From positions 620,001 through 684,000 of the forward strand of contig LSRY02000045.1 of NCBI GenBank assembly GCA_001643675.2: 64,000 nt of DNA, read 5' to 3'. The notes under the pieces were generated by a model, which was not told the origin of the DNA, did no database searches, and saw nothing but the letters and a program-made list of their open reading frames with translations. The DNA comes from Monocercomonoides exilis PA203. Its lineage: Eukaryota; Protista; Preaxostyla. The stretch's first letter is position 1; each line of letters begins with the position of its first letter. Both the position numbers and the translations under genes were made by a program. This document shows positions 34,536 through 64,000 of this stretch, in pieces.

Positions 34536-34691
34536 TCATGTTTTCGCACAAGTGCAAAAGAGGGTACTTTGAATATATTGTTTGCGGCAACAATTCAAAG
34601 CTTGAGCAACAGACGACTCAAGAAACTCAATTTCAATTAAACATATTTCACACAGAGCAATTAACAAAAAAACAGAAAAGAGAAAAATAGT

Positions 34692-37600: not shown

Positions 37601-38343
37601 AGTGATTTTTTCTCTGATTTTTTCAAAAAGGATTTATGATTGAAAAAAATATGAAGTTGTTAATTTATTAACAAAAATTACAAACTTTTATTGTATTTTT
37701 TACAAATCTTGAACATTCAGAAGATTCTGTTGAGTTGGTCATTATGAATTTTTCAAACTTGATTTCATCTTCAAAACTTAATTCTGAGTTAAACAATAGA
37801 ATAAGTTGATGAATGGAAATAATCCTATTAATTGCATTTTGAACCAACAAACTTGATTTTGTGTTATAAAAAGATTGCCTTTTCCTTTGAGAAACATCGA
37901 AACTTAAATTAGAGGAGCTCTGTTTTGCGAAGTTATAATTGCCCAATGTGCAATTAAAGCCCAGTTTTTCCAGCTGACAGAAGCTGAATTCATGACAAAT
38001 TGTTTTCAATAATGCAACTTTGACATGTTTATTGTCTTCGGAGTTGTAAAGACTAGCCATTCTTAACAAAACGCATTTCCATTTTTCTGAAGTTGCCATT
38101 TTGAACAAAGGAAGTTAAAACCTCAATAAATGAAAAAACCAATAACAAACCATCAAAAATTTTCTGAATCTTTGTGAAAAACTTTTTTCCTTTATTTGTG
38201 TGAAGGAACATGAACTTCAACATTTTCACAGCCAGATGAGTGGATTTTTCCTCAATGAAATTCCAGACATCTGCGCACTTTTCACTTTTACGAGATGCAG
38301 ATAGATCCGAAAAAAGCATTTCTTTACCGAAACTTGAGAACAA
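34692..38343 (-). pseudogene. Sola2-like DDD transposase with an internal USP (peptidase C19) deubiquitinase domain; disrupted, probably intron-containing
   Basis: Transposase: IRIINSTKAKLYDKL..MSLSTFYK..KRSDLxGLC, LLFDFKEKF, FICDTGPHFRN, FFCEKHGKCECDG. USP: LPNIGNTCCVASLVQ, QQE, CxxC..CxxC, LFHKGDEINGHF, WYMCEDG. One frame runs from 37626 through TAG 36607 and TAA 36070 into the transposase. Confidence 0.75.
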
Positions 38344-42568: not shown

Positions 42569-44753
42569 AGTAGTATATAATGCGAGTAATTAAACCCACA
42601 TTTAAAAATGTGGCCCAAATTACTCACATTACGGCTCCAAATAACATCAAACAAGAAAATTCATAAATTTCAACTTAAATTAAGTATTAATATTTGAAAA
42701 ATGATGTGTTTTTTCACATACTTTAGTGTGATCCAAAATATTTACTGTTTTAAATTATTTCAGTTCATTTTTTTAATTCATAATAAAAATGTCAGTTCAT
42801 GTTTTTTCTTTTTTAAATTAAAGCAAATTTGAAAAACTCATATTTATATTAGAACTAAAACGAAATGACTCAGTAATGCGGTATTCGATTTGACTAATAC
42901 CAATAAGTGAAATATAAAACCAAAAAGTGAGACTTAAAACCGTTTTGATTGAGTCAAGACCAATTGATTCAATTCTGGGTGCATGATCACCATGAAATTA
43001 AAAAAATGATAGTTTAAAAATTTTCAATTTTGAATTTATAAATGAAGTTTATTTCATAAAAATTATTATGTTCATGTTTCTTCTAGAAAAAAATGGAGTT
43101 TTAAAGTTTTCACACTTTTAAAAATCCTTTGTTCAATTTTCTATCTGTCAAAATAGAATGAATTCAAAAAATAAAAAGTGTATATCATTCTTTTGATTAT
43201 TATTTATTGATTTGAAGTGTTCAAATATAATGATCAAAATAGACCAATGTTATAATAAATTAAATTAAAAAGAAAAGCAAAACACAGATTCAAATGACTT
43301 AAACAACAAAATTATTCATTGAAAACACATCTATTCAAATAATTACACAAAAATGATAAAAATCGTTAAATTTCACACATTGCTCATAAAAAAATGAACA
43401 AACTTTATTGTTCTGAGGAAAATATCCATCAAAAACAAAAATTAACTTAAATCAGTGAGTTTCTCAACTATTTCAAAACCAACGGCTCTTACAATGAATG
43501 CGAATAAGTAAAAAATGTGGTATTTCAATGGAAAAAACCAAAATATCAATCACCAAATTTATCGACATTTTGTTCGTGATCATCAATAAATATCATTCAA
43601 ACACAAAAGCAACAATGAAATAAAAAACATATCAAAAAATTAATAAAAATGAACTGCTCTGTAACAGAAAACACAAAAAACTTCAAAGAATTTTGATCAA
43701 AATTGATATATAATTTTTGTATTTTAGATCACAAATTAGATTGAGAGAAAACCGAATTGATTGAGTCAAAACCATTAAAATAGACAAAAAACGTTTTGAC
43801 TAAAACAATTCGAATTGACCCGCTAAATTCGTTTAAGTTCTATTAAGCTTTCATAACTTAAGGGTTATACCATGGCCTTTCATAATTAAGGTCAAAGGTT
43901 CAATACCCGTTAGAGGCGACAAATTTTCAAACATTTGTCAAATCAAATAAATCATGCCTCTTTGCGATATATGAGACAGAGTTACTCATAGCTGCGCTGC
44001 AGTCAAATTCGCAGTGAATTTAGAACTCAAATTCAAAATCTAATTCACAATAATAAATGATAAGTGATTAATGAAAAGTGCTTAATGAAAAGTGCTTAAT
44101 GAAAAGTGCTTAATGAAAAGTGCTTAATGAAAAGTGCTTAATGACAATCAAAATTAAACAATAAATAATTAATCGATATCGATAATTAAAATTAATCAAT
44201 CAATAATAATAATTATTGAAATCAAATCAATTACAAAACAAAATCCCAAATATTGAAAATTTCCAAAACTTTCAGTTCTTCTAAAAAATTAAATTGGACC
44301 CTTTTTCATATTTATTTTTAAAATTAAACAGGATCTATTTATGTGGGGGGAAAATGACAGAGATTTTTTAAAATCGAAATTTTTTAAATTTCTATAAAAT
44401 TAGGAATAATGAGCAAACAAAATTTTAAGAATAAGAAATTGAAGCCATCAGAAATACTTGCGAAAACATTATTTCGACTTGACGTTATTCCTGCTTTTGG
44501 AAGAGGATCTTATCAAAAAAATAAGAAACTGTTGAAAGATTATGGAAAACAACAGATTCAAGAACAAGAGTTTTTAAATGCAATAGACGAAAATATATAT
44601 GACGATGTTCAACTCTCTAAAACACATGACGAACGAAAAGAATTGAGAAAACAGAAACTTTATTCTATTATTGAAGCTGCAAACACTTTCAAATTGAGAC
44701 GTGAAAGAGCAAAAGAGCTTGATGATCAAATAGCAGTCCTCAAAAAAGAAAAA
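42569..44753 (+). repeat. Left terminal inverted repeat (~2185 bp)
   Basis: Reverse complement of 61944-64000 (64000 pairs with 42710); the left boundary is inferred from the canonical AGTAGT start. Confidence 0.9.
44068..44143. repeat. 14-bp tandem repeat TTAATGAAAAGTGC, 5 copies in the left TIR and 6 in the right TIR (~62560-62643)
   Basis: Counted directly. Confidence 0.9.
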
Positions 44754-47700
44754 GCAAAATTATTAAATGATATTCCAGTATTAGCAGAAAAAATGATGAG
44801 ATATCATCAGATTAATAAAAAAGATACATATGGAGGTGAATTCGTTAGTACTGGAGATGAGCAAGCTCGTGAAGCTTGTAAGGACTTTAAAGAATTCTTG
44901 GAAATGAACACAGATACTGAACAAGCTTAATTATTGGATGAACAGTAACATGAGCTCAAAACCAATAATAAAATTGATTTCGAAATGTTGAATAACGAAA
45001 CACGTGCTAAACTGTTTCCTGAATTGAAAAAATATCTTGAATCACTTGTTGATAAAATTACGAAAGAAGATAAATATGTGTTCACATTGAAAATTGGGAA
45101 CAAATGGAGATCCAAAAAACTGACTCCAGAATTGTATAAACAGTTACTGTCAAATTTTACTGAAAAGAATTTTATGATAGACTTGTATGTTGATAATCAA
45201 AATATCAATTTTTCTGATCCTGAAGAGAGTGATATTCCTTCATGGAGCTTATATTCTGCTATCCACATTATGAAGCTCGAAGATTTTATAAAACTTCATC
45301 CTTCATCAAAAATTGATAAACAGATTTATAAAGATAAAGGAGGACACTTCTTCGATTATGTAACTGTTGAATCAGTTAAAAAGCCTGTGACTGATTATCT
45401 TAATAGACTTCAAATTTTTGATAAATTGACAGATAATAATAATAAAACTCGAAAAGAATTATTTGATTGCTACTGGATATATGCCTTAAATTCATCAGGA
45501 CTATTCGATGATGAAACACTTGACAAGATAAGATTGCGGGTGAAAAACAAATATTTATCGTCAACAAAAATAGATGCAATATGCGAAGAGTTTTATATAC
45601 ACTGCATTATTCATGAGCTTGATGATGAAGTAGTTGGACATAATAAGTGTAGAATGTCAGCTCCTCAAAAAGCATTAAAACGTAAAACATATCTAGGAGT
45701 TGATAAAAAAGAAGCTAAATATATATTTGAGCTTAATCTTTATCAAAAGCATTATTTTATGGAAGAGAGATCTCCAATCACAGAATATTATTTAGATCAT
45801 ATGAACACACTGGATGAAACAGAATACAATGTATTTTATGAAGGATCGCACAAGTGTAGAGCAAAAGGAAAGAGAACAAAAGAAGCACTAACATCAAGGA
45901 ATTTGGTAAAGAAGATGTTTGCAAAACAGCTTTTCAGACCTATAACTTATGGTGAATATCTAAAGATAAGCGACATCACCAAGCCTAGTGTCAAACAGAT
46001 TAACGATTTGCATTATAATCCAAAATTTTGTGTGAAATCGTTTAAGCAAATTGTGAAAGAAAAAGAATTTAATTCGATGCGTTATTAAAGCAAAACTATT
46101 TCAGACTATTATTATGCAGATTTCGAAGCAGATACAACAGGTATTCATAGAGCTTTTTACTGCTGTATAACAAACGAAAATGAAACAAAACACTTCAAAG
46201 GAGAAGATTGTGCAATTGAACTGTTGAACTATATTCCTGACAACTCTTGTGTATATTTTCATAATCTAAAATATGATTTCTGTATGATAGCTAAACATGT
46301 GGATGAACTTTCAAATCAAATCGCGAAAGACAACAGATTAATGAGAATCACAGTGAAATATAATAAGAAAACCATTGTATTTAAAGATTCATTTTCGATT
46401 ATTCCAAATGCATTAAAGCAATTCCCAAAGATGTTCAATTTAAAAAATACCCAAAAAGAATTGTTTCCATATAATTACTATACATTAAAGAGATTGAAAA
46501 ATAATACTGGAATTATTCGTGAAGCAGGAGAGTGTGAAGCTAAAAAGTGGAACATCGAAGATTATGAGCTTTTTAATAAAAATATTGACACTATTCCAGG
46601 ATGTCGATTAAGTGATAACACATTCGATATGTATAAATATTGTGGATTCTATTGTGAACAAGATACAAAAATATTAAGAGAAGGATTTCTCAAATTTCGA
46701 GAAGGATTCATGAATGATTTCGATATTGATATTCACGATTACTGTTCAATAAGCTCTCTTGCAGATGCCACACTGACAAAACAAGTGTATTCGAAGAATA
46801 AGAATTTGTATAAACTGGGAGGAATCATCAGAGAGTTTATGCAGCAAGCTGTTCACGGAGGAAGATGCATGATTGCATGCAATAAAAAATGGCACTCCAC
46901 ATCTCCTATTGTGGATTATGATGCTGTATCTTTATATGCTTCTGCTATGCACAGATTATATATGGTTGAAGGAACTCCAAGTGTAATTGAAACAGATGAG
47001 CAACACTCTTATGAGTTTTTACAGAATCAGAGTGCATATGTGGTGGAAATTGAGATTACAAAAGTGAACAAACACTATCCTTTTCCTTTACTCGTATTTG
47101 AAGATGATGAAGGAAATAATTTTAACAATGATGTTATTGATAAACCAGTGAGAACAGTTGTAGATAACATATATTTGGAAGACTAGATAGAGTTTCAGAA
47201 AATAGAATTCACAGTATTAAAAGGATATTTCTGGACAGGCAATCGTGATTACTCAATCCAAAAAGTCATCGGAGAAATATTTAATAAGCGAGCTGCATAC
47301 AAGAAAGAAAAAAATCCTTTAGAAGTTATATACAAATTAATCATGAATTCTCTCTATGGAAAAACAATTCAAAAGCCTGTTGATTATGAGATAAAATACA
47401 TTAATGAAAATGATATAGGAAAATATTGGAGCAAAAATTATAATAAAATTATTGAGTCATCAAAAATAGCAGATTCAAGAAATAAAACTCATGTAGAAAA
47501 ACACAGAAGCAGATAGACACTCATTTCACATTTAATTTATTTGGAATTCATATTTTAAGCATGTCCAAACGTATTATGAATGAAGTGATGTGTCTTGCAC
47601 ATGATCTCAACTGTCAAATCTATTATCAAGATACAGACTCTATGCACATTAGAATTGATGATCTATCAAGACTAGAAGAAGCTTTCAAAATAAAATACAA

Positions 47701-48166
47701 TCGTGATTTGAAAGGAACTCAGCTGGGAAACTTCCACTCTGATTTTCCAATGAATGCATTATTCGCAAGTGAATCTTATTTCTTAGGAAAGAAAATGTAT
47801 ATTGACAAGCTAGTACTTCCTGAAAATAAAACATCTTTCATGTTTCGCATGAAAGGGATTAAGCAGTCAGCTGTTGAAGCAAAAGCTAAGGAATCAGATG
47901 AATGCGAAGATTCTCTGATGAAATTATACAAGTGCATATATAAAGGAAAAACAGTTGAATTTGATCTCACAAATGGATCTCCTTGCTTTGAATTTGAAAA
48001 AGATTTTACTGTTGCATCTCTTGAAACTTTTAAAAGACGCATTAAAACATCATTAGAAATAGGAATACCCCCCGAAGGGATAGAGATCCTTTGGATCAAT
48101 ATCACAAGCAAGTGCTCAAATAAGAGCACAAATATAGAAAAAACATTTATGAAATTCATATTATAA
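44409..48166 (+). pseudogene. polB: Protein-primed family B DNA polymerase with long N-terminal (terminal-protein-like) region; 4 in-frame stops and 1 frameshift
   Basis: ORFs 44409, 44985 and 46224 share one frame; ExoI YADFEAD, ExoII FHNLKYDF, ExoIII YCEQD, motif A DAVSLYASAM, motif B KLIMNSLYGK, motif C YQDTDS, KKMY; frameshift ~47480. The first 173 aa could be a separate gene. Confidence 0.93.
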
Positions 48167-48215
48167 TCAAATATTATTTTTATTATAATGAAATAATCAA
48201 TAATAATAAATACAA

Positions 48216-49466
48216 ATGACATCAAAATAAACTAATTCATCGACACAGTCGCTGAGAGCACGTTTGCGCATTCAATCACTCATTAAGAGTTTGTTAGCTG
48301 CGTCTGATTCTCTGCTCACAGAAATAGAAGTGTACAAGAAAATAAATAAGATTCCCACAAAAACTCGAGTGTTCAAAACATATTTTGAAGCTCACAAAAC
48401 AGATCTCATATTTGATATCACTATTGAAGAATTATACAACAGATATAGACTGGAGTATTAAAAGAAATATAATCCGAAACAGTACAAGAAACAGTTAAGA
48501 AATAATTATGAACTCATAATAGATGAGCAAACTCCTGAGCAAAATAAATTTCTTCAAGGCACGGGATTTAAATCAAAAAAGAAACAAGAATCACTTTTTT
48601 ATCAAAAATACAATTCTCTTCCTGCTGGACACTCAAAATATCTCAAGAATAGTTTTCCAGATAAAGAAAATAAGCAATACTATTTTCATCATGTGGGACA
48701 AAAATACACATTTTTGATAGATCTTATGTTTTCAGATAATTTATGTTATCTTGTTGCAATAGAACTAAATAATAGATATCTGTTTGTGGAGCCAACTAAT
48801 TTTTCTTCGAAAGATGAATCAAGCAGTGGAAAAGTCACTCATTCACAGCGTTCAGCTTCTGCTGTTGTTGAAGCTTTAAACAGAATGATTATAAGGGGAA
48901 TGAAAGTTAGATACTTGAGAGGAGATAGCGAACGTGCATTCAATAGCACTTTGGCTCACAAATATTTTAAAACTCACAACATTTCTTTTCAATCTCTTGT
49001 AAGTACAGGATCTTCTCACACACAAATGGCTCCGCTTGATAGAGTTGTCAGGACTATAAGAGACATGAATTATGCATCAAATCCTCATAGTGAGTTTATT
49101 AATCCAGTCAGAATGAAGCAACTGGTGTATTATTATAATAATGCTCCTCATTATAGTCTTTCAAAAATAATGAACTTCGATATCAGTCCTCAGCAAGTGT
49201 ACGATAATGAAGAATTGGAAAATGAGATCATTCGTCGAATTCATCAGTTGAATTTTAATATTATTAATTCTCTTGATTACAAGCTTCCGATCAACACTAT
49301 TGTCGTTTTAAAAGCTCATTATGAAAGATTAGACAAGAGAAGAATGAAAATTCTACCTGAAACGTTTACAGTAATCGGATATGATAAAGGAAAAATAAGA
49401 GTTGAGAGCAACGTTGATAATAGAATACTGCTTGTCTCAAGATGTGAAATAGCGAAACACAATTAA
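48216..49466 (+). pseudogene. Retroviral-like (RVE) integrase, D-D-D type; two upstream in-frame TAA, catalytic part 48462-49466 open
   Basis: LIDLMF, YLRGDSERAF, APLDRVVRTIRD, YYNNAPHYSL..SP; 48216, 48264 and 48693 are in the same frame. Confidence 0.88.
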
Positions 49467-49495
49467 AAAAATTACGATAAAAAATTTTCTGCAAC

Positions 49496-50500
49496 TTATG
49501 CTGTGCGTCTCCAAATTGCCAAATAAATTGCAGGAGGATCAATTGTGTGTGTATGACTATTACTGCCTCCTGTTGTGCTGAGACTTGCGGAATGGTTATG
49601 GCTTCCTCCAACTGCTGTGTAAAAATGGGTTTCACCTGATGAATCCCAATTAAATTCCATTCCAAGAATATTTCCAGGTGATCCGATACTTTGTAATGGG
49701 TGATATAAAGCATGTGTGTGTTCTCCACTGTTATCTATTGTGATGCTGTGAGTATGGCTTGGTATTTGAGAAGTTGTTAATGTCGTTGCACCAGAAGTTG
49801 ATGATCCAGATGTTGTGCCTATCAAATCTGCAGAAGATGCAGCTCTTATAAATCTTCCATTTGTTATCATTTTCCACGATGTTCCTGGATATGTTTTTGA
49901 TGGATCTGAAGCATCATATTTAATTATTACGCTGTTTATAGGATATATAACATTAACGATTGTTGTTAAAGATATCTGTTTTGCATCAATTTCTGATTTG
50001 TTGTAATAATTCTCTAATGATATTTGTTCTTTCTCGATTTCTAATAATTCTGTTCCATCCCACCAGTAATCAGGATCATTTGTCTCTTTTAAATAAAACG
50101 TTTGTCCAGTTTGTAATGTATTGACATTATCTTGAACGGAAAGCCATTGACACATATCTTCATAACTGTCAAACACTCTTGCTTTATATCCAACTTTAGC
50201 ATTCAATTCAGCGAACATATATCGATTCAAGTCTTGATTTGCTGTTATTGTTTCATTAATATCTTTAATCTTTTCTATAACACTTTCTTTCACTTTATCG
50301 ATATTCTCTAATGAATTATATATTTCTTTTATATTTTTGTCAACATTATTGAAATTCTCTAATGATTCATTTATTTCTTTAATACTTTCTTTCACATTAT
50401 CGAAATTCTTTAACGATTCATTTTTCATCTCCTGTTGCTGTTTGTGCTGAAGGATCATCAGAGCTATATTAGCGTTGATTGTTTTTAATGAGGAACTCAT
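49496..50500 (-). CDS. Fibre/baseplate-like structural protein: coiled coil + PDYWWDG domain + phage baseplate/tail-collar-like C-terminus
   Basis: Intact 334 aa; IYPINSV..DPSKTYPGTSW..GRFIRA..TLTTSQIPSHTH..HNH..PPAIYLAIWRRTA matches the pattern of phage gp10-C-like baseplate/tail proteins. Confidence 0.72.
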   Translation of the reverse strand: MSSSLKTINANIALMILQHKQQQEMKNESLKNFDNVKESIKEINESLENFNNVDKNIKEIYNSLENIDKVKESVIEKIKDINETITANQDLNRYMFAELNAKVGYKARVFDSYEDMCQWLSVQDNVNTLQTGQTFYLKETNDPDYWWDGTELLEIEKEQISLENYYNKSEIDAKQISLTTIVNVIYPINSVIIKYDASDPSKTYPGTSWKMITNGRFIRAASSADLIGTTSGSSTSGATTLTTSQIPSHTHSITIDNSGEHTHALYHPLQSIGSPGNILGMEFNWDSSGETHFYTAVGGSHNHSASLSTTGGSNSHTHTIDPPAIYLAIWRRTA

Positions 50501-50540
50501 TTATATATTGATAAAAATAAATTGTATTTCTTATTTTTGC

Positions 50541-51698
50541 TTAATAAAATGGAACACTAACTGGATATGTTATATTGAACTCAATAGTTCCCTTATTGTA
50601 ATACACCACTTGTTGAGATTTTATTTCCACAGTTATGTATGATACACCATCGTATTTAATTCGAACAGAACATGAACAATAATTTTCATAACCATCACCA
50701 CATCTGACTGTTATGCTGAATACGAAGTGAGATCCATCTGTGTATGGAGGAGACAAATAACTTTTTGCATTTGATACTGTGAATTTTCCAATTTGAATCC
50801 AAGCAGTTTTGTCATTGCCCGAGAGACTTTCAATATCTCCTCTGACATACATAGTGGCAAGCTCTCCATATCGACTAATAAATCCGAATGTGTTTTTCAG
50901 CAAGCTATTTCCAGTGAAAGCAAGTTTTTCTGAAGTTGGAATTCTGACTGCTCCAACTTTATTGTCAACGTATTGTTTTGTCACCAAGTGATAAATATTT
51001 GTTGGAACTGCTGATGTTGTTATTGCATTTGCAAATGTTTTGCTTCCAGTGATAGTTTCTGTTCCACTCAAATGAACCACACTTTCGTCATTAGCTTTTG
51101 AAGAATCACTTGGATGAATATGATCTTCTCTTGCATATTTATCTGATGTTCCGGCATTAACAGAACCATCCATTAACGGATTACTTGTTCCTGCTTTTTC
51201 TGATAATTCATCAGGAAGAACGTCAACTGATAACTTTCCACTTTCATCTAATCCTGCATATCCATTTGCTTTATCTTTATTTGTTGTTTTTTCATATCCT
51301 TCCAACTCAATTCCAGTTAAATCAATCATGTCTTCTGATATGGTTAGATATGATGATGCAATTTTTCCATTATTGTCAAGAGGAACATATCCATTCGCTT
51401 GTCCTTTGTTCTCAATCTTCTCACAAGTTTCAACAATATTATCAATCTGAACTGCTTTATAGTACTCGTTAAGTTCTCCCACACTAAAGTCACTAACATC
51501 ACACTCAATTTTCTTTAACGCTGTTCCATCCCACCAGTAATCAGGAACATTATTTCCTTTTATAAGTATTAATTGTCCTTTTACGAGATTTCCTTTATTC
51601 ACATCGATCCAAGTTTGCATCTCTGAAGCTGAATCAAACACTAAATTTCTTGTGCCTGTCTGTCTGAGCTGTCTCTGATAAATATCTGATGTTTGCAT
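50541..51698 (-). CDS. Phage tail-fibre-like protein (likely start MQTSD at 51698)
   Basis: Intact; PDYWWDG domain; two KxxANGY(V/A)xLDxxGK repeats; PLMDG..GTSDKYAREDHIHPSD; VVHLSGTETITGSKTF; VTKQYVD; beta-rich C-terminal head. Confidence 0.75.
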   Translation of the reverse strand: MQTSDIYQRQLRQTGTRNLVFDSASEMQTWIDVNKGNLVKGQLILIKGNNVPDYWWDGTALKKIECDVSDFSVGELNEYYKAVQIDNIVETCEKIENKGQANGYVPLDNNGKIASSYLTISEDMIDLTGIELEGYEKTTNKDKANGYAGLDESGKLSVDVLPDELSEKAGTSNPLMDGSVNAGTSDKYAREDHIHPSDSSKANDESVVHLSGTETITGSKTFANAITTSAVPTNIYHLVTKQYVDNKVGAVRIPTSEKLAFTGNSLLKNTFGFISRYGELATMYVRGDIESLSGNDKTAWIQIGKFTVSNAKSYLSPPYTDGSHFVFSITVRCGDGYENYCSCSVRIKYDGVSYITVEIKSQQVVYYNKGTIEFNITYPVSVPFY

Positions 51699-51751
51699 TT
51701 TCAATGATATTAAAAAACTAAAATTAATCGTTTTAACTGTTTTTAAAGATA

Positions 51752-52583
51752 ATGTTAAAAACACTTGTGAAAGTCCCTCCAAAAAGATACATAAAACAAA
51801 TGAAGGTGGAATTAACAGATTCAGACACTCAAACCACTAATCAAAACACTCAGAGTAATAATGTGGAAAATATTAATGAAAGAAATCTTTTTTATTCCAA
51901 TGAAAATAGTATGCCTATTCCAATTTCTGTATCAGCGAATTTAACCAAATCAACACATACTTCAACTCCATCGATGTCTAGTACAATTAACGTAAATGTG
52001 GCTGCAGGAAACACTGATTCAACAAAGGAGGCAGCTTCAAGAAGAAACAGTCAGCAAGAGCGAGAACAATCAATTCCTGAACGGATCTCTGATCCTCGAG
52101 GGGACTTTGTCCCCGAAGCACTTCCTTCACTTCCAGAATCGTTCGATAATTTCACAGCTTATCCTTCTGTTCCATTTGAACCATCAGCGCCCTCTTCATC
52201 AACACATCCTTATCCATTGTATTCGTTGCGAGAATCAATAACTATTAATCCTGATGACGAAAACAGATTTAAAGATAAATATATCGAGTTACTCATTAAT
52301 GTGATCAATTCTCCAAAAAAAGTGCTCAAGAGTTGCATTGAACCCAGTAAGATGATTATTCTTCCTGCTGATGAATTAACAATATTGATTGCATTATTGT
52401 AAGGAGTCAACGATGTTGAAATCATTATTGAAGAACAAGCAGTATCGTGTTTAGGAAAAGTGAAGTTCATCAAAGATATCTCTCGAATATTAGTCGGTGG
52501 ATTAGATCTTCAAATAAAATATTATCACATTTACAACAGACTGTTAGGTTATCATGTCTCTCTTGTTCACACATTCTTGAATA
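51752..52583 (+). pseudogene. Polinton hypothetical protein (low-complexity N-terminus; frame continues past TAA at 52400)
   Basis: 216-aa ORF followed by an in-frame continuation GVNDVEIIIEE... Confidence 0.5.
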
Positions 52584-52938
52584 ACTCGAAAGAAAAATAA
52601 ATGTTATATATATTTTTGAAAGAAAAATCCTTCGCCTGAATTTCAGGCAACGATTATTAAAGTCATTTTTTGAAGATGCAGAACTTTCCGTATCATCATT
52701 TTTTGACATAAGTTGAATAAATCATTAGTTGAATGCAAAAATGATATCAAATCAACTGTTTTCATAGTCAAAAATGATACGACACAAGTGACTAAGTTTT
52801 TCATGTGCCGATGTGTGTCATGCCGTTTTTGCATATGAGATGTCCTGATTTCAGTCTCAATATTGATCAATCTTATGTCTAAAACTGCAAAAGACCGGCA
52901 CAATCAGCACTGCACAAGTGAGCGATTCAAGATTCTTT

Positions 52939-53072
52939 AAAAACAGGTTTGCAGGTCTGCGTATGTTACGTTACATAAATAATTGATTGATGAACTAATG
53001 TCAATGCACAGGGTGCACAGGGTGCACAGGGTTATTTCACTTCTTGTAAAATCAGTGGCCATACGGACATAT
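52939..53072 (+). repeat. Internal inverted repeat, left arm, with three TGCACAG(G/T)G iterons
   Basis: Reverse complement of 55824-55957. Confidence 0.92.
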
Positions 53073-53139
53073 GTGACATTATTGTTTGAAAAATATATCC
53101 AACATATAAGCTAAATACCCCTGAAGCAATAGAGATTCT

Positions 53140-55758
53140 TCAAATCGATAGTGCATCTACAATTTCATCTCCTGCAGTTATTGTTTGATGATACAAAGAC
53201 TTACATTCATCTTTCAATATATAATACCATGATCGTACTCCATTTTTTGTTTTTTGTTTATGAACGCATTTATCTTTGATCTGCAGTTGAAAATTTTTAT
53301 CTTTCATCTCACAAGGTTTATTTGCAAGAGCATCTGTACATTTCATACCTTCGCATAGGTCATCATAATAATCACAAATCCAGTTTTCAAAAGGGTTTTT
53401 GCTTGCCTCGATTATATCTTGTTTTGCTTCTGTTATTGGAATTAATCTAACGTTGAACTTTGAGAGATCTCTTTTCATGAAATACGTTAACAGATTATCA
53501 TAGAATTCCGTTGTAAATGAATCACATAATTGTTCAAAGAATGAAAAGTTATTTTTGTATTTTCCATTACATGCAAGCACAACGTATCTACGATCTCCTA
53601 TTTCTATTTTTAAAGGAAAAGAATTATTAGTTACGAATATAAAGTTAGCAACATTTTCAAAATTTCTTCTTGGTTGATTCTTTTCGTTTATTCTTATTAC
53701 TATATCTGTAATGACTGATTTTAATGCATTGAAGTTTGCTAGTCTATCTTCTCCACAGTTCTTGAGTTCGTTTAATATTATTAACATTTTGCTTTCTACA
53801 ACAGAATTAAAGTTACCTGTCAATTCTCCTATTTCTGTAACATTTCTGCTCGAATATCCAGCAAACAATTCAGATATTACATCTGTAAATCTATTCTAAC
53901 CAATCCCTTGAAGTCCTTTCAATACCAAGGCAGTTTCATTTTTGATTCCAGGATGTTGAACAATATTAGCAATCCAGTTAATAACATATTCATATAGTTC
54001 ATCATTTGAATCTGCAATTACCTCTCGAACAAAGTCAAGAAACATTGATATTATTTTCATGGCGACTTGTTCAAGAATTCGATACTTAAACCCTTGAAAC
54101 ATAGAATACATGTTTGGAATATCTAAAGCATTAAACATAACACCTTGTAATGTTAATTTGGATAAACCTGTGAGTAGAATGTCATATGCAGTTATTGTTT
54201 TCGATTCAGTCTTCCACGATTGTATCATCTTTAGATTTTTCTTCATATTTGTATCTGTGACGAAAGCAATACACCAGCATTTGTCAAATATATTATACTC
54301 TTTTTGTATATACATTGATCCAGTTTCAATAAATCGAAAAACTCTTGAAAGATCAGTAAATACTTCACTATTGTTTTTATACTGGCCACTTTCTGATTTG
54401 TTTCTTATATCTGTTTGTGAAAATGAATCATATAAATCAATTGGTTCGATACACTTTTCATATTCAACTGCTTCTTTTTCTTTTGAACTTTTCAAAAGTT
54501 TCATTTTCTTTATCTCAGGAACAACAGTGTTTTGATAATATTCTGGACACCAGATCTTAACAATCTTTTGTAAGACATAAGGTGTTGATTTCTTATTCAA
54601 ACAGTTCTCTCGTGTTTTATCCCAATTCAGATCAGCATTGGCTGTTAAAGTATTATTGCTTTTTATCTCTTGATAATACGCTTCGATGTCTTCTTCTTGT
54701 ACTGATTCGATATTAATGAGACTGTTAATGGCGCAAAACAATGGGAATAACGATAATTCTTTATCGATACTGAAATGACAATAATTATGAATTGTAACAT
54801 TTGTGATTCCACAAACAAGCACTTCAGCAAACTCTTTCGGCATCGAGCAGAGTCCATCAGCTGTTAGATGTATGTTCGTATCATCATTAAATGAATCATA
54901 TCGAATATCAATACCAAATATGTTTAGTATATCTTCCAATGATGAAAGATTCGATTTGTCAAGATAGTTATTCAAGTCAACATAATTTTTAACTATTTTT
55001 GAATCTCCTTTGACTCTTTCACGTATTCTGGTCTCAGCCTGTTCAATGAATAGATTGATTGCAGAATCATTATATCGACCAGTTATATCACACTCTTCTT
55101 TTGCTTTCTTTTTCAGTTTCTCAGGAATATGTATTGTTGCATCCTTGCTCTCTTCTTCAGTGAACTTTATTATTTTTGTTTCGGCTTGAACAAGACATCG
55201 TCGATTTCCATTCACACAAGTAAACACATCTATCTCATAGTCGGAACACTTGTAGACTTTTGTTTGTGAATCAGTCTTTAATGGATATTCATCTCGGTCA
55301 CAATAGATATGTAATCCACCATTTCCTGTCTGAACTAATCCAACATTTTCTGGTAATCTTAAGAGAATTGATTGTCTGATTTTTTCTTTTCTTTCTTCGT
55401 CGACTGCTTTGTTTATATCGATATCAACTACAGCTGGATTATCAATTTTGCTGATATCAATATATTGTCCTGTTTTTTGTCCTGTTTCATAAATCGTTTC
55501 ATCTGTATCCTTGTTCTTAAATTCTCGAGACACTTTCTTGTAATTGTATCATGGTTTTATACATCCATTTATTCGTTCACCAATAGTTTTCTTTTTCATC
55601 ATTTCTTTTCGTATTCTCTGTTTTTGTTCTTCCTGTACAAACATCTTTTCTATTATTGGATCTTCGTCAACCATTAATGCTGGATTCTTTTTAAAAGATC
55701 AGAATTTATGACCATCGTGTTTTCCATTTGTCTTTTTAGTGGAAGCAAAAAAATCCAT
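53140..55758 (-). pseudogene. AEP (Prim-Pol-like) primase fused to a D5-like SF3 helicase; 3 in-frame stops
   Basis: VVDIDI and VQTGNGGLHIY (AEP motifs); Walker A GLQGIG*N with the Lys replaced by TAG 53896; Walker B IILNEL; motif C IFVTNN; DRR. Frame opens at ATG 55758 and crosses two TGA. Confidence 0.88.
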
Positions 55759-55823
55759 TTTTTTTAAAACAAAACTTATTTTTGATTTTAGTTTTCAAAT
55801 GCATTTTTTCATATATATGACCA

Positions 55824-55957
55824 ATATGTCCGTATGGCCACTGATTTTTTAAGAAGTGAAATAACACTGTGCACCCTGTGCACCCTGTGCATTGACATTA
55901 ATTCATCACACAATTATTTATGTAACGTAACCGCAGCAGACGAGCAGACATGTTTTT
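55824..55957 (-). repeat. Internal inverted repeat, right arm
   Basis: Reverse complement of 52939-53072. Confidence 0.92.
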
Positions 55958-56099
55958 TCTATTAATTAAAATGACCCGGTGAACTGACATTCTTTTTCGA
56001 TATTTCTTTTGTGAATCGTTAATGTTTCTTTAACATAAATGAAAAAAATATTATTAATATTGTCATAAATAATGAAAACAGTTTTGATATATTTTTGAT

Positions 56100-56627
56100 T
56101 TAATACTCCAACATGTATTTCATTACGAACTTGACATTAGACATATCCAAAGGAGTTTCATCAAAATTTTTGAACCAAACTCTGAAGTTATCTTGTTGAA
56201 AAAACTGCTGATATTTATCTCTCTCTTGAAATTCATTACAATACCTAACAAGTGAATCATTATCTTTATCTTCATGAATGAAATCCCCATGTAATGAAAT
56301 GTGTTTAGGCTCTTCAAGTGCAATAGTATTTATTAAATTTGAAGATTCAGTGTTGTTTAATTCAATTTTTCGAATTAGTTTACACCATATTACATGAAAA
56401 TATCTTTTGCGTTTTGAATTTATAAACGCTTTTGGAAGAATAGTGATTAAAGTTGATGTTGTGTGATATCTTTTAACAGGCACACAGTTCTCATAATTTA
56501 TATCTATGTTCGATGAAATATCACACAGGGTCAAGGTCTGCAGAGCAGCCTTCGCTGGATGCACTTCATGTGCAGTCATTTTCTGAAAATTAAAATCCCA
56601 AAGCATTTCAAAAATGAAATTAAACAT
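56100..56627 (-). CDS. Polinton hypothetical protein (beta-rich; minor capsid/penton candidate by position and size only)
   Basis: Intact ORF downstream of the capsid candidate; no motif recognised. Confidence 0.55.
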   Translation of the reverse strand: MFNFIFEMLWDFNFQKMTAHEVHPAKAALQTLTLCDISSNIDINYENCVPVKRYHTTSTLITILPKAFINSKRKRYFHVIWCKLIRKIELNNTESSNLINTIALEEPKHISLHGDFIHEDKDNDSLVRYCNEFQERDKYQQFFQQDNFRVWFKNFDETPLDMSNVKFVMKYMLEY

Positions 56628-56757
56628 TCATCGATTCAGGTGTTGGAAGTCTTGGAGGATCTTCATTTTTTATTGCTGCTGTTAATAATAAACACTGGAA
56701 TGTTTGGACAATTGTTGATATTATTAATGTTGTGCAAAGGACAATTTCAAATAACAT
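56620..56757 (-). CDS. Small 45-aa hydrophobic, putative membrane protein
   Basis: Manual translation MLFEIVLCTTLIISTIVQTFQCLLLTAAIKNEDPPRLPTPESMNV*; below the ORF-track cutoff. Confidence 0.4.
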   Translation of the reverse strand: MLFEIVLCTTLIISTIVQTFQCLLLTAAIKNEDPPRLPTPESMNV

Positions 56758-56826
56758 TTATGTATTTGTAATGATTGACTATTTCATTATTGATAAAAAT
56801 TAAAAATATATATATAATTGGTTGGT

Positions 56827-58587
56827 TTATTCTTCTAATTCTCCAGCTGGAGTATATCCTAACTCACTTAATACATCTTCTGTAGTATGATCTTTAACAT
56901 ATTGAACATTTAATCCATCTTTGAGACTAAAAATCCAAAATGATTGTTGAACCATGTTGAATAGAGGAGCAGGGGGATGTCTTGCATTTTGAGTGAGATC
57001 ATCTCTAACGTTGTAATAAGTATCTGTTTCTCCACTGTAAATGGGAGTTCCTCTGAGTTCAACAGAAACAGGAGTATTTCCAGTGTGAATTCCATAAAAA
57101 CAGATTCCAGTTCCACAACTTCTCTCACACTGTGTTGTGAACATGAATGATGTTTCATCAGTAGTTGGAAAGAAGACTTCAGAAGCATTATTTTTGACAC
57201 TTGTGAGACTCTCTTCATACTCCTCAGTGGCTGGGAATAAAGAATCAAGATCTGAAGCATTAAGCATCATCTGGAAAAACATTGCATCTGTAGTATTTAA
57301 AGGCTTTTCAGGGAATCGTCTATCACCGATGTAGAGTTGGAGCTCTTTATATTGAGGGTTATCAAATGTTGTCCAATGACGAGTATCTTTTTGGAATAGA
57401 GAAACTGTTGACATAACATGATTAAAGCATAAGTTGTCATGGCACTGTTGAAATCCTGAAGGAGTAGGAGCACTTCCTAATCTTTTTGTCTCAATTCTTT
57501 GTGAAGGAACTACAAATGGATGAGAAGAGAAGTATTCAACAAGATTAGTTTAGCACTGAGAAGACACATTTTATCCCGCAATAGAGATCTTACAGTCTTT
57601 CGTCTGGCAAAATGTGACTGTGGGAGTAAACTCAGGAATAATAGTTTCATAATTGAATCCATCAACAGTTCCTTCAGCAGTTAAGTCATAATTAAATACA
57701 AACTGACGTGAAGGACAGTTTATTTGTGTGAACTTCTTTGCATACTCAAAACATGAATCAGGAGTAGTAAGGATCATCTTCATTACGCTATCGTAGTTTT
57801 GTCCTTGTGAAGATTTGAAGAAGTTTCTTCGTTTTCCTACAGTTTTGATCATGGACATTTTTGGAGATACTCGACAGTTAACAAGTGCTTCAGGTTTTAT
57901 GGTGTATTTGAGTTTCAAATTTCCGAATAAACGATTTGGATAATCAATAAATCCTGAAAACAGAAGAATATCATCAAGAGGAATAGATATTGGAATATCA
58001 ATATCAAGATAAGATCCTGCTTTAATTAGTGTTATCGGAACGTAGACTCCACAAGCAGAATTATCATATTTGTGCACATTATCATATAAAGAGTGTATAT
58101 GTTTTCGATTATCTTTCTCAGTTTTTGGCTTGATTGTGTTATATATAAATGATTCAATAGTTGCATTGGGCTGACGAGTAGAATCAATAATCTTATCTTC
58201 TCCATGAACAACACAATAATCTGAGATAATATTTGATCCTGATCTCAGTCCGATGAACATAAATTGAGACTCAAGCAGTTTCTTTCCTGCTTGTGAGATC
58301 TCATTATCGCGTGTAACAAGATCATGAGAGAAATTAATTCTTGCAGTAATGACTGTAGTAATAAATGAATCGTGAATTTGTGTGACATCCACATTTGCGT
58401 TAGTCATCGATATGTTTATTTCATGAGTGTAATCCAAAGGAAGTTTTTCATCAGGAATAGCTTCAGAAATAGAATAATAGTGTCTTCCATCGTTGATTGC
58501 AGTCATTTTTGAATAAGTTTTTAATGCAGCCTCAATATTTCCGACAGGCTGTAACCCAAGTGATTTTGTAACATGCAGATTTGACAT
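56827..58587 (-). pseudogene. Probable major capsid protein (divergent double jelly-roll), ~586 codons, two in-frame TAA
   Basis: ORFs 57571..58587 and 56827..57414 are one frame (IAG*NVSSQC*TNLVEYFSSHPFVVPSQRIE); largest beta-rich structural-type ORF near the ATPase. The fold is inferred. Confidence 0.6.
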
Positions 58588-58645
58588 TTCGTATTTAATA
58601 GAAGATAAAAACTTGAAGAATATAATATTTTATCGCTATCAAAAT

Positions 58646-58999
58646 ATGTCAGCTGGAATTTGGAACAAAATGAAAAACTTTTTCTCGAATACATTTAATA
58701 CTGTGAAGAATGGAATTAAATGGGTGAACGATAAGGTAGTGAAGCCTCTTATTCGACCGGTATTGAATACTGTATCACCATTCCTTCCTGGTCCTGGAAA
58801 ACTAATTAATAACGTTGTCAACACAGTGAGTGATTTTGCTGATAATGCTCTTGGAAACAGAAGCAGAAACATCTCTTACGATCTGCAATATTCCAACAAT
58901 TCAGGAACATTAAACAGATCAGGAGGAATGAATCGAGCAACATCGAGTACATCAGATATTCTAAAGCAAGGATTGCTTAACAGAAGAGTTCAACTTTAA
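58646..58999 (+). CDS. Small basic protein with N-terminal amphipathic helix (adenovirus protein VI-like membrane-penetration candidate)
   Basis: MSAGIWNKMKNFFSNTFNTVKNGIKWVNDKVVKP. Confidence 0.6.
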   Translation: MSAGIWNKMKNFFSNTFNTVKNGIKWVNDKVVKPLIRPVLNTVSPFLPGPGKLINNVVNTVSDFADNALGNRSRNISYDLQYSNNSGTLNRSGGMNRATSSTSDILKQGLLNRRVQL

Positions 59000-59075
59000 A
59001 AATAAAATTATTAATGGAATCCACAAAAATATTTTTCACTTGATGTTATTATTTATTTTTGTATTTATAATTTGT

Positions 59076-60083
59076 TTAGAATTGTTCTTCTTCGATATCC
59101 ATCTTGTCAGAAATCGCTGAAGATAAAGAAGACGAAGAAGCTGATGATGATGAACTTGAGCCTTGATTAGATTTGATAAATATTTCAATTAAAGGATTCT
59201 GAAGATCCGGATTTGTATTAATTAATGGGACGAAATTTGTCAAAGGATTTTGAGAAGTGAATATCATTTTTGCAACTTGAATCGTTGTTGGAGCATATCT
59301 TTTTATGAGAACATCGAAATCGTTATCAGTTAATCGAGAGTAGAATGCTTTCCAATACTTTCTGTGCTTTGATATCACATTTCCTTTATCGATAAACATA
59401 TTGTAAATACCGATGTTTGGATTGATAGCCATCATCATATCATGAATCAAACACTGTCTGTATATTACAGAATTTATTTTTGTTAGATGCTGACTGTAGG
59501 TGAATTTCTTATTTTCACATAATTTTCTCACCTCATCACTTGTGTCGAAACTTTATTGAAACCTCTCAAGGATCTGTGAAACTACTCTCTTTTTGAAATC
59601 AATATCCATTCTGTCAACTTGTCCTTTATGAAGATTCTTCAAATAATCAACATATTTGTTCTCACGTCTGTCATTCAAGTTTGGAAATTTATCAATATAA
59701 TTACACATTAGTTTTCTTCTCTTGCGCTCATCTCCTGTTGTATATCCATCAACTGCATATATATCGTTATTTGGAGTTTTCCAAATGATCTAATCGGGAG
59801 TATCAGGGTTGTTATCATGATCTATTGAATCGAAACTCCAATCTTTTCCTTCTTTCCAAAGTTTATTTCGTTTCAGATAGTTTTTCCCTGACTGTTCACT
59901 CATTAAACCTTTAATATATCGTATTTCCTGTTGTTGATCAAGTATAATATGTTTCAATTCATCCATTCCAAGTTTTGCTTTTGGGCCACCTGCATGTGCC
60001 TTTTTTCTATTGGTGGTATCTGATGAAAATAGTGAAATTCCTTTTTTTGGTAACTCAAGCAGATTTAGACTGTTAAACATCAA
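59076..60083 (-). pseudogene. Polinton hypothetical protein (~335 codons, two in-frame stops)
   Basis: ORFs 59790..60083 and 59076..59531 join in one frame through TAG 59790 and TAA ~59552 (manual translation). Confidence 0.6.
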
Positions 60084-60144
60084 TAGTTCTTTTATACAAG
60101 ATAAAAATGTTTTAATCAGATTAAAATACTAAATAATTATCATT

Positions 60145-61119
60145 ATGAAAAGTGGACAGATTCTTCCTGCGTTCCTCGTAGGAAGCAGCGAGAGATCGCA
60201 GCTTCTTAAAGAAATCAACTCGAGATCCTTAGAGACAATCGTGAATAGAAGAAACAGAGAGGCAGAATTAGATATCACGTATGAGATTCAATCAGATATA
60301 CATCCAGATCTGTTTTTCATACGTATTTCTGTTAATTTGCTTGTAGGAGGAAGAGGAAGTGGAAAAACATATAGTGTTTTGAAAGAACTAGCTAAAGTGA
60401 GTGCATTAGATGAATTATATCAAGAATATGATGTCACTCCTGAGTTGCATTTTGGAGGCTATTCATTATTTGTGTATGTGTCTGACAAGAGTTGTGATCA
60501 AACATTTGAGAGGATGAAGAAATTTATTGAATTTCCAATAGTGCAAGTGAGATATAATGAAGCTTTAAAAACACTAACTGATATCAGTAATGCCAAAGAA
60601 CTATATCGTGACATACGCAATAGAAAACAACAGGATGAATCAGTTGTGAATGCTGTATTGGAGACACTGCATATAGAAGACTTTTCTCAACCTGTTCATC
60701 ACACAGCAGTTTTATTTGATGACTGCATGGAGATGTTCAAAAAGAAAGATGGATTATTTGGATTACTGTTTGAGAATAGACAGCCTATGATCACATTCTT
60801 CTTATGCTAACAAGATCCAAAAGGAATATGCTCAGAAGTGAAAGCTAATTTGGACACTCTGTGGATATTTGAAGGATTCTCCAAATTGAAGTTCAATTAT
60901 GTATATTATCAGTTGCAGACTAATCAAGATCGTGATACTCTATGGGAAGGCTACAAAAATTTAAGCAGAAGAGACATCATGCACTTCTCATATGATGATG
61001 ACGGGACAAAAATAAAGACCATTATTAATGCTAAAAAGGATGACCCCCGACAGGGATCAGAACTAAGCGATAAGAACAGAAGAACAGCTATCAACGTGAG
61101 ATATGTTAGAAATATTTAA
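60145..61119 (+). pseudogene. A32/FtsK-like genome-packaging ATPase (one in-frame TAA)
   Basis: Walker A LLVGGRGSGKT, Walker B AVLFDD, Arg finger ENRQ, FFLC*QD, KANLD; 60145 and 60838 are in the same frame. Confidence 0.88.
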
Positions 61120-61463
61120 AGAATTCTATTATTTTTCAAAGTTTCTACAACGATTTCCATTTGTTTTGACAAAATATAGATTGCATCAATAATTTCAGAA
61201 TCGTTCGATAAATTTTTCGACAAGATATTATTTGAAGATTTCTTTAGTGATATCTTGTTATTGAGTTTAGTGATTCTATATCCTTCTATGTGATATTGCT
61301 TATTGAGTTTACATGTTGATAGCTTATTCATCTCTTCTTCATTATCTGTTAGATATTCTTTAAACTCCTGAACTGTTTCAAATGTTTTAATATCAGGTGA
61401 AAAAGGTTCAATTATTGTTATATCTGGTAATTCTTTTTTAACAATTTTGGCTGTTTTTGACAT
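61116..61463 (-). CDS. Polinton small hypothetical protein (115 aa)
   Basis: Intact ATG ORF preceded by the TTTTATC motif. Confidence 0.65.
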   Translation of the reverse strand: MSKTAKIVKKELPDITIIEPFSPDIKTFETVQEFKEYLTDNEEEMNKLSTCKLNKQYHIEGYRITKLNNKISLKKSSNNILSKNLSNDSEIIDAIYILSKQMEIVVETLKNNRIL

Positions 61464-61520
61464 CTTTTAAAAGAAGATAAAAATAAAAATCACTTACGTT
61501 TTATTCACTTATGATATTCA

Positions 61521-61868
61521 TTACTGTTTTATATCTTTACTTTCATCAGTGCTATCTGGTATGTTCTTTTTAAAATCTTTTTCAGCACGAAGTGCCGGGA
61601 ACAGCAAACTGTTTTCACAATATTTTCTATAAGCCTCTTCAATAGAAATATATTTAGCATTATTGAGAATTGTTTGGACCTCTTTTAAAGTGTCTTCACT
61701 TTCGAACATGTTTTTTGAAAGCATTTTTATGACAGTTAGTTGAATTGAATGTGAATGCTTTTTAAAGAACTCATTTTGTAATTTGTATCTTTCTTGACTT
61801 TTTCTTATTTGCTGCAGTTGTTTTGCTTTTGCTTCTTCTTCTGATTCATATAACTTTTTTCTTCCCAT
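61521..61868 (-). CDS. Polinton small basic/helical protein (MGRKKLY..., possible DNA-binding)
   Basis: Intact 115-aa ORF. Confidence 0.6.
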   Translation of the reverse strand: MGRKKLYESEEEAKAKQLQQIRKSQERYKLQNEFFKKHSHSIQLTVIKMLSKNMFESEDTLKEVQTILNNAKYISIEEAYRKYCENSLLFPALRAEKDFKKNIPDSTDESKDIKQ

Positions 61869-61916
61869 TGAATTTTAAATTGAATAAAAAAATATTTGAA
61901 TTATTTTTTTATCATA

Positions 61917-62288
61917 TTATTTTTTCTTTATGTTGAAATTTATTTTTTCTTTTTTGAGAACTGCTATTTGATCATCAAGCTCTTTTGCTCTTTCACGTCT
62001 CAATTTGAAAGTGTTTGCAGCTTCAATAATAGAATAAAGTTTCTGTTTTCTCAATTCTTTTCGTTCGTCATGTGTTTTAGAGAGTTGAACATCGTCATAT
62101 ATATTTTCGTCTATTGCATTTAAAAACTCTTGTTCTTGAATCTGTTGTTTTCCATAATCTTTCAACAGTTTCTTATTTTTTTGATAAGATCCTCTTCCAA
62201 AAGCAGGAATAACGTCAAGTCGAAATAATGTTTTCGCAAGTATTTCTGATGGCTTCAATTTCTTATTCTTAAAATTTTGTTTGCTCAT
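61917..62288 (-). CDS. Truncated duplicate of the first 115 codons of the 44409 ORF, carried in the right TIR
   Basis: Identical protein up to ..AVLKKEK, then 8 unrelated residues. Confidence 0.75.
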   Translation of the reverse strand: MSKQNFKNKKLKPSEILAKTLFRLDVIPAFGRGSYQKNKKLLKDYGKQQIQEQEFLNAIDENIYDDVQLSKTHDERKELRKQKLYSIIEAANTFKLRRERAKELDDQIAVLKKEKINFNIKKK

Positions 62289-64000
62289 TATTCCTAATTT
62301 TATAGAAATTTAAAAAATTTCGATTTTAAAAAATCTCTGTCATTTTCCCCCCACATAAATAGATCCTGTTTAATTTTAAAAATAAATATGAAAAAGGGTC
62401 CAATTTAATTTTTTAGAAGAACTGAAAGTTTTGGAAATTTTCAATATTTGGGATTTTGTTTTGTAATTGATTTGATTTCAATAATTATTATTATTGATTG
62501 ATTAATTTTAATTATCGATATCGATTAATTATTTATTGTTTAATTTTGATTGTCATTAAGCACTTTTCATTAAGCACTTTTCATTAAGCACTTTTCATTA
62601 AGCACTTTTCATTAAGCACTTTTCATTAAGCACTTTTCATTAATCACTTATCATTTATTATTGTGAATTAGATTTTGAATTTGAGTTCTAAATTCACTGC
62701 GAATTTGACTGCAGCGCAGCTATGAGTAACTCTGTCTCATATATCGCAAAGAGGCATGATTTATTTGATTTGACAAATGTTTGAAAATTTGTCGCCTCTA
62801 ACGGGTATTGAACCTTTGACCTTAATTATGAAAGGCCATGGTATAACCCTTAAGTTATGAAAGCTTAATAGAACTTAAACGAATTTAGCGGGTCAATTCG
62901 AATTGTTTTAGTCAAAACGTTTTTTGTCTATTTTAATGGTTTTGACTCAATCAATTCGGTTTTCTCTCAATCTAATTTGTGATCTAAAATACAAAAATTA
63001 TATATCAATTTTGATCAAAATTCTTTGAAGTTTTTTGTGTTTTCTGTTACAGAGCAGTTCATTTTTATTAATTTTTTGATATGTTTTTTATTTCATTGTT
63101 GCTTTTGTGTTTGAATGATATTTATTGATGATCACGAACAAAATGTCGATAAATTTGGTGATTGATATTTTGGTTTTTTCCATTGAAATACCACATTTTT
63201 TACTTATTCGCATTCATTGTAAGAGCCGTTGGTTTTGAAATAGTTGAGAAACTCACTGATTTAAGTTAATTTTTGTTTTTGATGGATATTTTCCTCAGAA
63301 CAATAAAGTTTGTTCATTTTTTTATGAGCAATGTGTGAAATTTAACGATTTTTATCATTTTTGTGTAATTATTTGAATAGATGTGTTTTCAATGAATAAT
63401 TTTGTTGTTTAAGTCATTTGAATCTGTGTTTTGCTTTTCTTTTTAATTTAATTTATTATAACATTGGTCTATTTTGATCATTATATTTGAACACTTCAAA
63501 TCAATAAATAATAATCAAAAGAATGATATACACTTTTATTTTTTGAATTCATTCTATTTTGACAGATAGAAAATTGAACAAAGGATTTTTAAAAGTGTGA
63601 AAACTTTAAAACTCCATTTTTTTCTAGAAGAAACATGAACATAATAATTTTTATGAAATAAACTTCATTTATAAATTCAAAATTGAAAATTTTTAAACTA
63701 TCATTTTTTTAATTTCATGGTGATCATGCACCCAGAATTGAATCAATTGGTCTTGACTCAATCAAAACGGTTTTAAGTCTCACTTTTTGGTTTTATATTT
63801 CACTTATTGGTATTAGTCAAATCGAATACCGCATTACTGAGTCATTTCGTTTTAGTTCTAATATAAATATGAGTTTTTCAAATTTGCTTTAATTTAAAAA
63901 AGAAAAAACATGAACTGACATTTTTATTATGAATTAAAAAAATGAACTGAAATAATTTAAAACAGTAAATATTTTGGATCACACTAAAGTATGTGAAAAA
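61944..64000 (-). repeat. Right terminal inverted repeat (runs off the window)
   Basis: Reverse complement of 42710-44753. Confidence 0.93.

Follow-up and report, generated by a model that had tools for sequence, protein, structure and literature searches.

We analysed a window of 64,000 nucleotides from the oxymonad Monocercomonoides exilis PA203 (contig LSRY02000045.1, positions 620,001 to 684,000), which contains a Maverick/Polinton element of about 21 kb flanked by 2-kb terminal inverted repeats. Two tandem open reading frames (ORFs) on the minus strand of this element, ORF A and ORF B, lie 40 nt apart, have no internal stops and share a PDYWWDG module of about 48 amino acids (30 of 76 residues identical, BLASTP E 9e-12), with a 59-nt repeat still 80% alike between the two module-coding segments (Table 1). 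Paralogues of both ORFs occur in M. exilis at 90–97% identity. A first-pass annotation made from the letters of the DNA had reported the paired ORFs, their common module and a series of phage-like motifs, all of which we locate in ORF A or ORF B, and had proposed that they encode virion spikes built from tail-fibre and baseplate parts of bacteriophages.

Table 1 Features of the M. exilis element (positions in the 64,000-nt window)
Feature	Position	Strand	Remarks
Left terminal inverted repeat	42710..44753	+	Pairable extent inside the window
Protein-primed DNA polymerase B, broken	44985..48166	+	PF03175, E 1e-47; 2 stops and 1 frameshift
Likely retrovirus-type integrase	48231..49466	+	D-D-E-like motifs by eye; 1 stop
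ORF A, likely trimeric fibre	49496..50500	-	334 aa; coiled-coil-like repeats, PDYWWDG module, Gp10_C tip
Gp10_C domain of ORF A (PF21939)	49502..49960	-	aa 181-333; four HxH motifs
PDYWWDG module of ORF A	50033..50176	-	aa 109-156; predicted homotrimer, collagen XV/XVIII trimerisation-like fold
Three 51-nt (17-aa) repeats of ORF A	50272..50421	-	N-terminal extension; likely coiled-coil stalk
ORF B	50541..51698	-	385 aa from ATG; module, ANGY repeats, REDH motif, BppL_N-like neck, beta-rich head
C-terminal beta-rich domain of ORF B	50544..50933	-	Likely receptor-binding head
BppL_N-like segment of ORF B (PF18338)	51021..51089	-	aa 204-226; E 1.3e-4, below curated cut-off
PDYWWDG module of ORF B	51504..51641	-	aa 20-65; pLDDT 87-94
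Likely primase-helicase	53140..55533	-	DUF5906 E 1e-17, VapE-like E 1e-7; stop inside Walker A motif
Likely minor capsid (penton) protein	56100..56627	-	Intact 175-aa ORF; label from position and size only
Major capsid protein (MCP), Metamonada group	56827..58587	-	By-eye match to Streblomastix MCP; 2 stops
Likely packaging ATPase	60145..61119	+	Walker A and Walker B by eye; 1 stop
Right terminal inverted repeat	61944..64000	-	Continues past the window edge

Read from its first ATG, ORF A places the module behind 94 residues that hold three 17-residue repeats (within residues 27–93) with the look of a coiled coil, and continues from the module into a Gp10_C domain. The match to the Gp10_C family covers the whole profile at E 9e-11 (43.3 bits against a cut-off of 27), and seven of the eight PHROG matches of ORF A are to tail families. 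In the structural model of residues 95–334 (mean pLDDT 64.8, pTM 0.31) the module and the core of Gp10_C are confidently predicted; compared with 48,161 chains, the model best matches the C-terminal domains of the phage T4 proteins gp10 and gp11 (Z 5.4). The homology to phage tail-fibre and baseplate proteins first suggested by the motifs is borne out by these matches. ORF A resembles only the tip domain of the T4 proteins and carries it on a coiled coil and the module. The metagenomic proteins P0149 and P0032 share this layout of a short stalk, the module and a Gp10_C-type end, P0149 being 31% identical to ORF A over 261 columns (E 7e-40). A search of IMG/VR with P0032 retrieved 16 loci that match the Gp10_C part only, and P0149 and a further metagenomic module protein, P0166, have no relative in that database. 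In other copies of the element an unrelated sequence is joined at position 50374, inside ORF A.

T4 gp10 is itself a baseplate connector, and the two ORFs might accordingly encode capsid decoration or adaptor proteins that bind no receptor. That gp10 and gp11, both structural parts of the baseplate, are the best matches of ORF A would fit such a role, as would the lack of any carbohydrate-binding or enzyme domain in Pfam and NCBIfam profile scans of ORF A and ORF B. However, relatives of Gp10_C occupy terminal positions in tail and fibre proteins, as seen in the PHROG hits and in the loci, and it is receptor-binding heads that lead the weak fold matches of ORF B, so we regard a purely structural function as improbable.

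In ORF B the module comes first and is followed by two ANGY repeats, a REDH motif and a BppL_N-like segment. The PHROG matches are to tail and virion families (E 2e-11 to 2e-4), with the ANGY, REDH and BppL_N-like segments each matched; the BppL_N match itself scores 21.9 bits against a cut-off of 25.8. Among 47 candidates of 211–674 aa, just two match the C-terminal 150 residues, and both are paralogues. A Foldseek search with the low-confidence model of ORF B places the receptor-binding protein of phage TP901-1 and the heads of adenovirus and reovirus first, at E 0.08–0.8, none of them significant. The arrangement recalls BppL of TP901-1, in that a BppL_N-like segment precedes a beta-rich C-terminal domain and the TP901-1 protein is the top Foldseek hit, both matches being below significance, and it differs from BppL in having about 200 extra N-terminal residues. 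The C-terminal domain of ORF B is likely to be a receptor-binding head, and ORF B as a whole a trimeric fibre.

The module is predicted to form homotrimers. Three copies of the ORF A module modelled together give a homotrimer score of 0.79, compared with 0.12 for the best of three controls; in calibration, 21 of 30 proteins with structures solved as pairs attained the mark, against none of 23 single chains. Contacts agree between runs by at least 84%, and pLDDT is at least 81. Structural comparison ranks the collagen XVIII and collagen XV trimerisation domains first for the modules of both ORFs (Z 4.7–5.8), and these matches span nearly the whole target of about 55 residues. A module superposes on the collagen XV/XVIII domain with a TM-score of 0.63 by target and a root-mean-square deviation (rmsd) of 2.1 over 50 columns (E 1.4), and the ORF B module on the collagen XVIII domain with Z 5.8 and rmsd 3.6 over 56 aligned residues. 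The next-ranked matches are small domains of phage tailspikes (Z 2.5–3.6). Both the predicted fold and the predicted oligomer support the trimerisation role that the first-pass annotation had offered for the module as one of two possibilities, the other being a capsid anchor.

Module and collagen domain are alike in being small alpha/beta domains of about 55 residues that are trimeric, by prediction in the case of the module, at 10–13% identity. Searches of PDB sequences and Pfam found no sequence or profile link between them; scanned against Pfam at E 10, 26 module sequences gave weak SH3 matches only and no collagen trimer family. The PDB sequence search likewise returned nothing meaningful for ORF A, ORF B, the module profiles, the MCP or the ORF at 56100. 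We consider it improbable that the module is a widespread trimer clamp truly homologous to the collagen XV/XVIII domain and that it was carried by Polintons from gut phages as a universal plug for swapped heads. If that were true, it would trace a specific path by which a part of phage tail fibres became a domain of a eukaryotic matrix protein, with the genomes of Monocercomonoides and Streblomastix as recipients of the module. A phage instance of the collagen-like trimerisation fold is described for the K1 lyase tailspike (PMC8822698).

The module defines a sizeable family: a search of 50% clusters gave 524 relatives at E 0.001. No Pfam family covers the module in the 99 of 149 listed relatives that were scanned, and in 15 of these other parts of the protein match Pfam tail or fibre domains. 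In IMG/VR, 314 of 335 module pattern matches were confirmed, and in five of the eight viral loci with scanned neighbours the gene that carries the module has baseplate, sheath or tape-measure genes around it; in the clearest phage locus (L001) a tail-attachment family spans residues 3–168 of the protein, far upstream of the module. Proteins of Streblomastix strix also carry the module. INPHARED phages gave no module match, and GTDB genomes gave no confirmed relative when queried with exact-word patterns, an insensitive test. The core genes of the element have no match in the 80 module loci from IMG/VR or in 71 metagenome loci, so that no free Polinton-like contig with the module was found. Six metagenomic proteins (P0042, P0065, P0072, P0108, P0127 and P0166) join the module to LTNKTL repeats and possibly belong to other protist viruses.

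A module tree built from 62 columns and 45 of 166 module rows is mostly unresolved. The ORF A and ORF B modules cluster in it with support of 91/63, and a duplication inside the lineage is the probable source of the two, the tree support for this being weak. The data neither establish nor reject a single origin of the Monocercomonoides and Streblomastix modules (p-AU 0.26). Donor and direction of transfer cannot be read from the tree; acquisition of the phage parts in a bacteria-rich habitat is plausible.

Where the module lies in the chain bears on whether it could also anchor the fibres. It might serve as a shared plug that both trimerises the two proteins and docks them on the same vertex protein, giving the virion two interchangeable types of spike. 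The module is N-terminal in ORF B, and in ORF A its place depends on the start codon: the database gene models of all five copies begin at M95, which would make the module N-terminal, whereas the first ATG leaves 94 residues ahead of it. The extension has a GC content of 26% and shows seven non-synonymous and no synonymous changes among the differences listed, which would favour the later start. The same fold forms the putative particle-binding domain at the N terminus of a Klebsiella phage lyase (PMC8822698), and by chain ranges it is also N-terminal in Mtd, in the hyaluronan lyase fibre of a streptococcal phage and in Kp7 gp52. Against a plug, the upstream ATG of ORF A is set in AT-rich sequence, as the other starts are, at a distance of 40 nt from the stop of ORF B, and the four metagenomic relatives closest to ORF A in architecture have 28–45 residues ahead of the module. 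Across the family, profile positions for 148 of the 149 listed relatives put the module internally in 106 proteins, near the C terminus in 33 and near the N terminus in 6, with 3 short proteins; it starts within 30 residues of the N terminus in 9 of the 148 and is internal or C-terminal in 139. The 17-residue repeats keep the reading frame, suggesting that the extension is coding, although we are less sure of its status. On balance a shared docking plug is possible but unlikely.

We therefore favour, with a probability of roughly 0.7, the interpretation that ORF A and ORF B encode two trimeric attachment fibres assembled from phage-tail modules, in which PDYWWDG would act as a clamp for three chains and not as a special capsid anchor. 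Each chain is predicted to join two like chains through the module. In ORF A a coiled-coil stalk would lead through the module to an intertwined tip of the gp10 type. HxH motifs of the Gp10_C family bind metal on the three-fold axis, and those of ORF A would do the same. In ORF B the module would be followed by short shaft repeats, a BppL-like neck and a beta head, the last parts being weakly predicted. The putative docking elements are the short N-terminal stretches before the module, which would attach at a capsid vertex, and the fibre tips would bind the host surface, by analogy with other Polinton-like viruses.

Several observations weigh against this interpretation. The trimer test was calibrated with two copies, and a pass may reflect likeness to solved folds. 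No Foldseek match reached E 0.001, and all structural Z-scores are below 8, the level at which the tool is trusted. Outside the module the model of ORF B is of low quality (mean pLDDT 44.9), and with a second aligner unrelated beta-sandwiches match its head at an equal or higher Z. The repeats of ORF B also occur in DUF5907 proteins, so not every part need derive strictly from phages. Of the module relatives scanned, 78 of 99 lack any Pfam match, and most of the 80 viral module loci are near-copies of one large phage. A start of ORF A at M95 would make both modules N-terminal and would suit an anchor, as would the related folds that are N-terminal 'particle-binding' domains of some tailspikes (PMC8822698). 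Finally, the fibre role is here read from genes, not from particles or proteins.

The remainder of the element is of the Maverick/Polinton type, and PHROG and Pfam scans reveal no genes for a baseplate, a tail tube or a sheath. The likely integrase at 48231..49466 is so labelled from D-D-E-like motifs and has no notable match in Pfam or NCBIfam; the likely ATPase at 60145..61119 is labelled from its Walker motifs, a profile search giving no family match. The ORF at 56100 has no match in PHROG, Pfam, NCBIfam or PDB sequence searches. The inverted repeats align over 2,043 nt with one mismatch and two indels, and an AGTAGT at 42569, a Polinton terminus motif, may be the true left end of the element. 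An ORF begins within each repeat (44409–44984 and 62288–61917). The former is in frame with the polymerase and its stop is read through in other copies, suggesting that it may be the N-terminal part of the polymerase. A 141-nt inverted repeat (88%; 52939–53079 and 55817–55957) lies on both sides of the primase-helicase gene, and contigs connect opposite strands close to it; together these suggest an invertible or exchangeable cassette.

The ORF at 56827 had been treated as a product of its own and is instead the 3' piece of a single broken capsid gene (58587–56827). This MCP has no relatives in profile-library, PDB and IMG/VR searches; by eye, and unscored, it parallels the Streblomastix MCP of Table S3 in PMC10120064, with the motif FIYNT.KP..EK.NRKHIHSLY common to both. 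In the tables of that work (Bellas et al. 2023), the Streblomastix MCP is matched by its authors to the Sputnik MCP at E 2.6e-12, six MCP genes are listed for Monocercomonoides exilis and 820 for Streblomastix strix (Table S1), and the MCPs of the two species share one column of Table S4. The capsid match and the listing of M. exilis indicate that the element belongs to the already catalogued Metamonada Maverick/Polinton viruses.

Most core genes carry stops, as the first-pass annotation had noted: there are 11 in about 4,490 codons, all TAA or TAG, and a frameshift in the polymerase. The stops interrupt motifs that, on our assumption of the motif residues, call for different amino acids. Differences from other copies were drawn from contigs of four DNA runs of one sample (40 of 1,436 listed), and sense codons stand in other copies at all four stops that fall among the listed differences. 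The stops thus represent decay and not recoding, and an alternative genetic code was rejected. Between copies (44700–62000), run X1 shows 400 A-to-T or T-to-A changes against 304 A-to-G or T-to-C changes, a trend common to all four runs; this excess of A/T transversions fits stops that are all TAA or TAG. Other copies also have insertions or deletions of 33–42 nt at several places between 48000 and 61600. The stop load of the core genes implies about 1.3% decay, or about 53 differences, and the inverted repeats show only one substitution and two indels, so that either an already dead copy was replicated and inserted in trans, or the repeats underwent conversion, or their identity stems from assembly polishing.

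The intactness of ORF A and ORF B had been read as a weak hint of retention, and the host might keep both genes for its own use, for instance to make adhesins that bind bacteria and are displayed on its surface or secreted. In favour of this, the two are stop-free within an element whose core genes are mostly broken, and 16 of the 40 listed differences from other copies (of 111) are synonymous and 24 non-synonymous, an excess over the neutral 25% (p 0.02) that indicates selection on the fibre genes at some time. At the core rate, however, only 1.5–1.9 lesions are expected in the two ORFs, and none at all would be seen with a probability of 0.15–0.22; the short ORFs at 56100, 61116 and 61521 are intact as well. 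The gene models of ORF B are truncated or deleted in three of the four other copies. Nor is the constraint special to the fibre genes: the listed core-gene differences comprise 13 non-synonymous and 22 synonymous changes (excluding four stops and one difference in ORF A), giving a rough dN/dS of 0.49 for ORF A and ORF B against 0.19 for the core (Fisher p 0.065). This fits a constraint that dates to the past of the virus and that is, if anything, below that of the core. Retention by the host is thus very improbable, and we reject it; in this copy ORF A and ORF B look like passengers that are intact by chance as the element decays.

Further ORFs and repeats lie elsewhere in the window. A single ORF of 3,594 amino acids (5476–16260), which contains repeats and a likely membrane segment and ends in a kinase-like region, is, by eye, likely a member of an expanded kinase family of the host. 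Overlapping minus-strand ORFs at 17300–22200 have reverse-transcriptase, RNase H and tyrosine-recombinase-like motifs and are presumably a DIRS-type retrotransposon. Broken transposase-like and cysteine protease-like ORFs at 34045–40000, with a 96-nt inverted repeat at 34045–34286, are likely a decayed DNA transposon.

Phage-like fibres in Polintons are already known, and the novelty claimed at first for the pair was overrated. The text of PMC12220804 (Bulzu et al. 2025) that we consulted describes them across Polinton-like viruses, including BppL_N (PF18338), phage tail repeats and paired fibres, and reports phage tail repeats in Trichomonas vaginalis as well. The Ltf fibre was detected in Gezel-14T particles, according to the consulted part of a preprint (bioRxiv 10.1101/2022.07.28.501842), and fibre or tail-collar genes of related elements are mentioned in the sections of PMC8502044 and PMC3671162 that we consulted. 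As far as the consulted text of these sources goes, ORF A and ORF B resemble the fibres of Polinton-like viruses in being modular genes of phage-tail domains and in numbering two to an element, as is proposed for those viruses. They differ in being short (334 and 385 aa) where the others are long multi-domain proteins, and in using Gp10_C and the PDYWWDG module, with no S74 chaperone, laminin G or collagen match. Neither Gp10_C nor PF21939 occurs in the text, as distinct from the figures, of two supplements of PMC12220804. The open literature yielded no report of Gp10_C or the module in Polinton-like viruses, the motif string itself not being queried, and its text, figures excluded, no description of the ORF A and ORF B genes. 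The Metamonada Maverick/Polinton viruses have a similar capsid gene, and the main text of PMC10120064 does not contain the word 'fiber' and describes no spike genes. The new parts are an unnamed family of predicted trimer clamps with a predicted fold and a likely Gp10_C-tipped fibre in an oxymonad Polinton.

The copy examined here is dead, and the general understanding of Polinton-type viruses is unchanged by it. The module family, with hundreds of members of about 50 residues and no Pfam model, could serve as a marker of fibre genes among hypothetical phage proteins, and the module is a candidate small trimerisation tag. For the viruses themselves, the element would provide an example from a gut protist of Polinton-type viruses that share a box of attachment-fibre parts with tailed phages.

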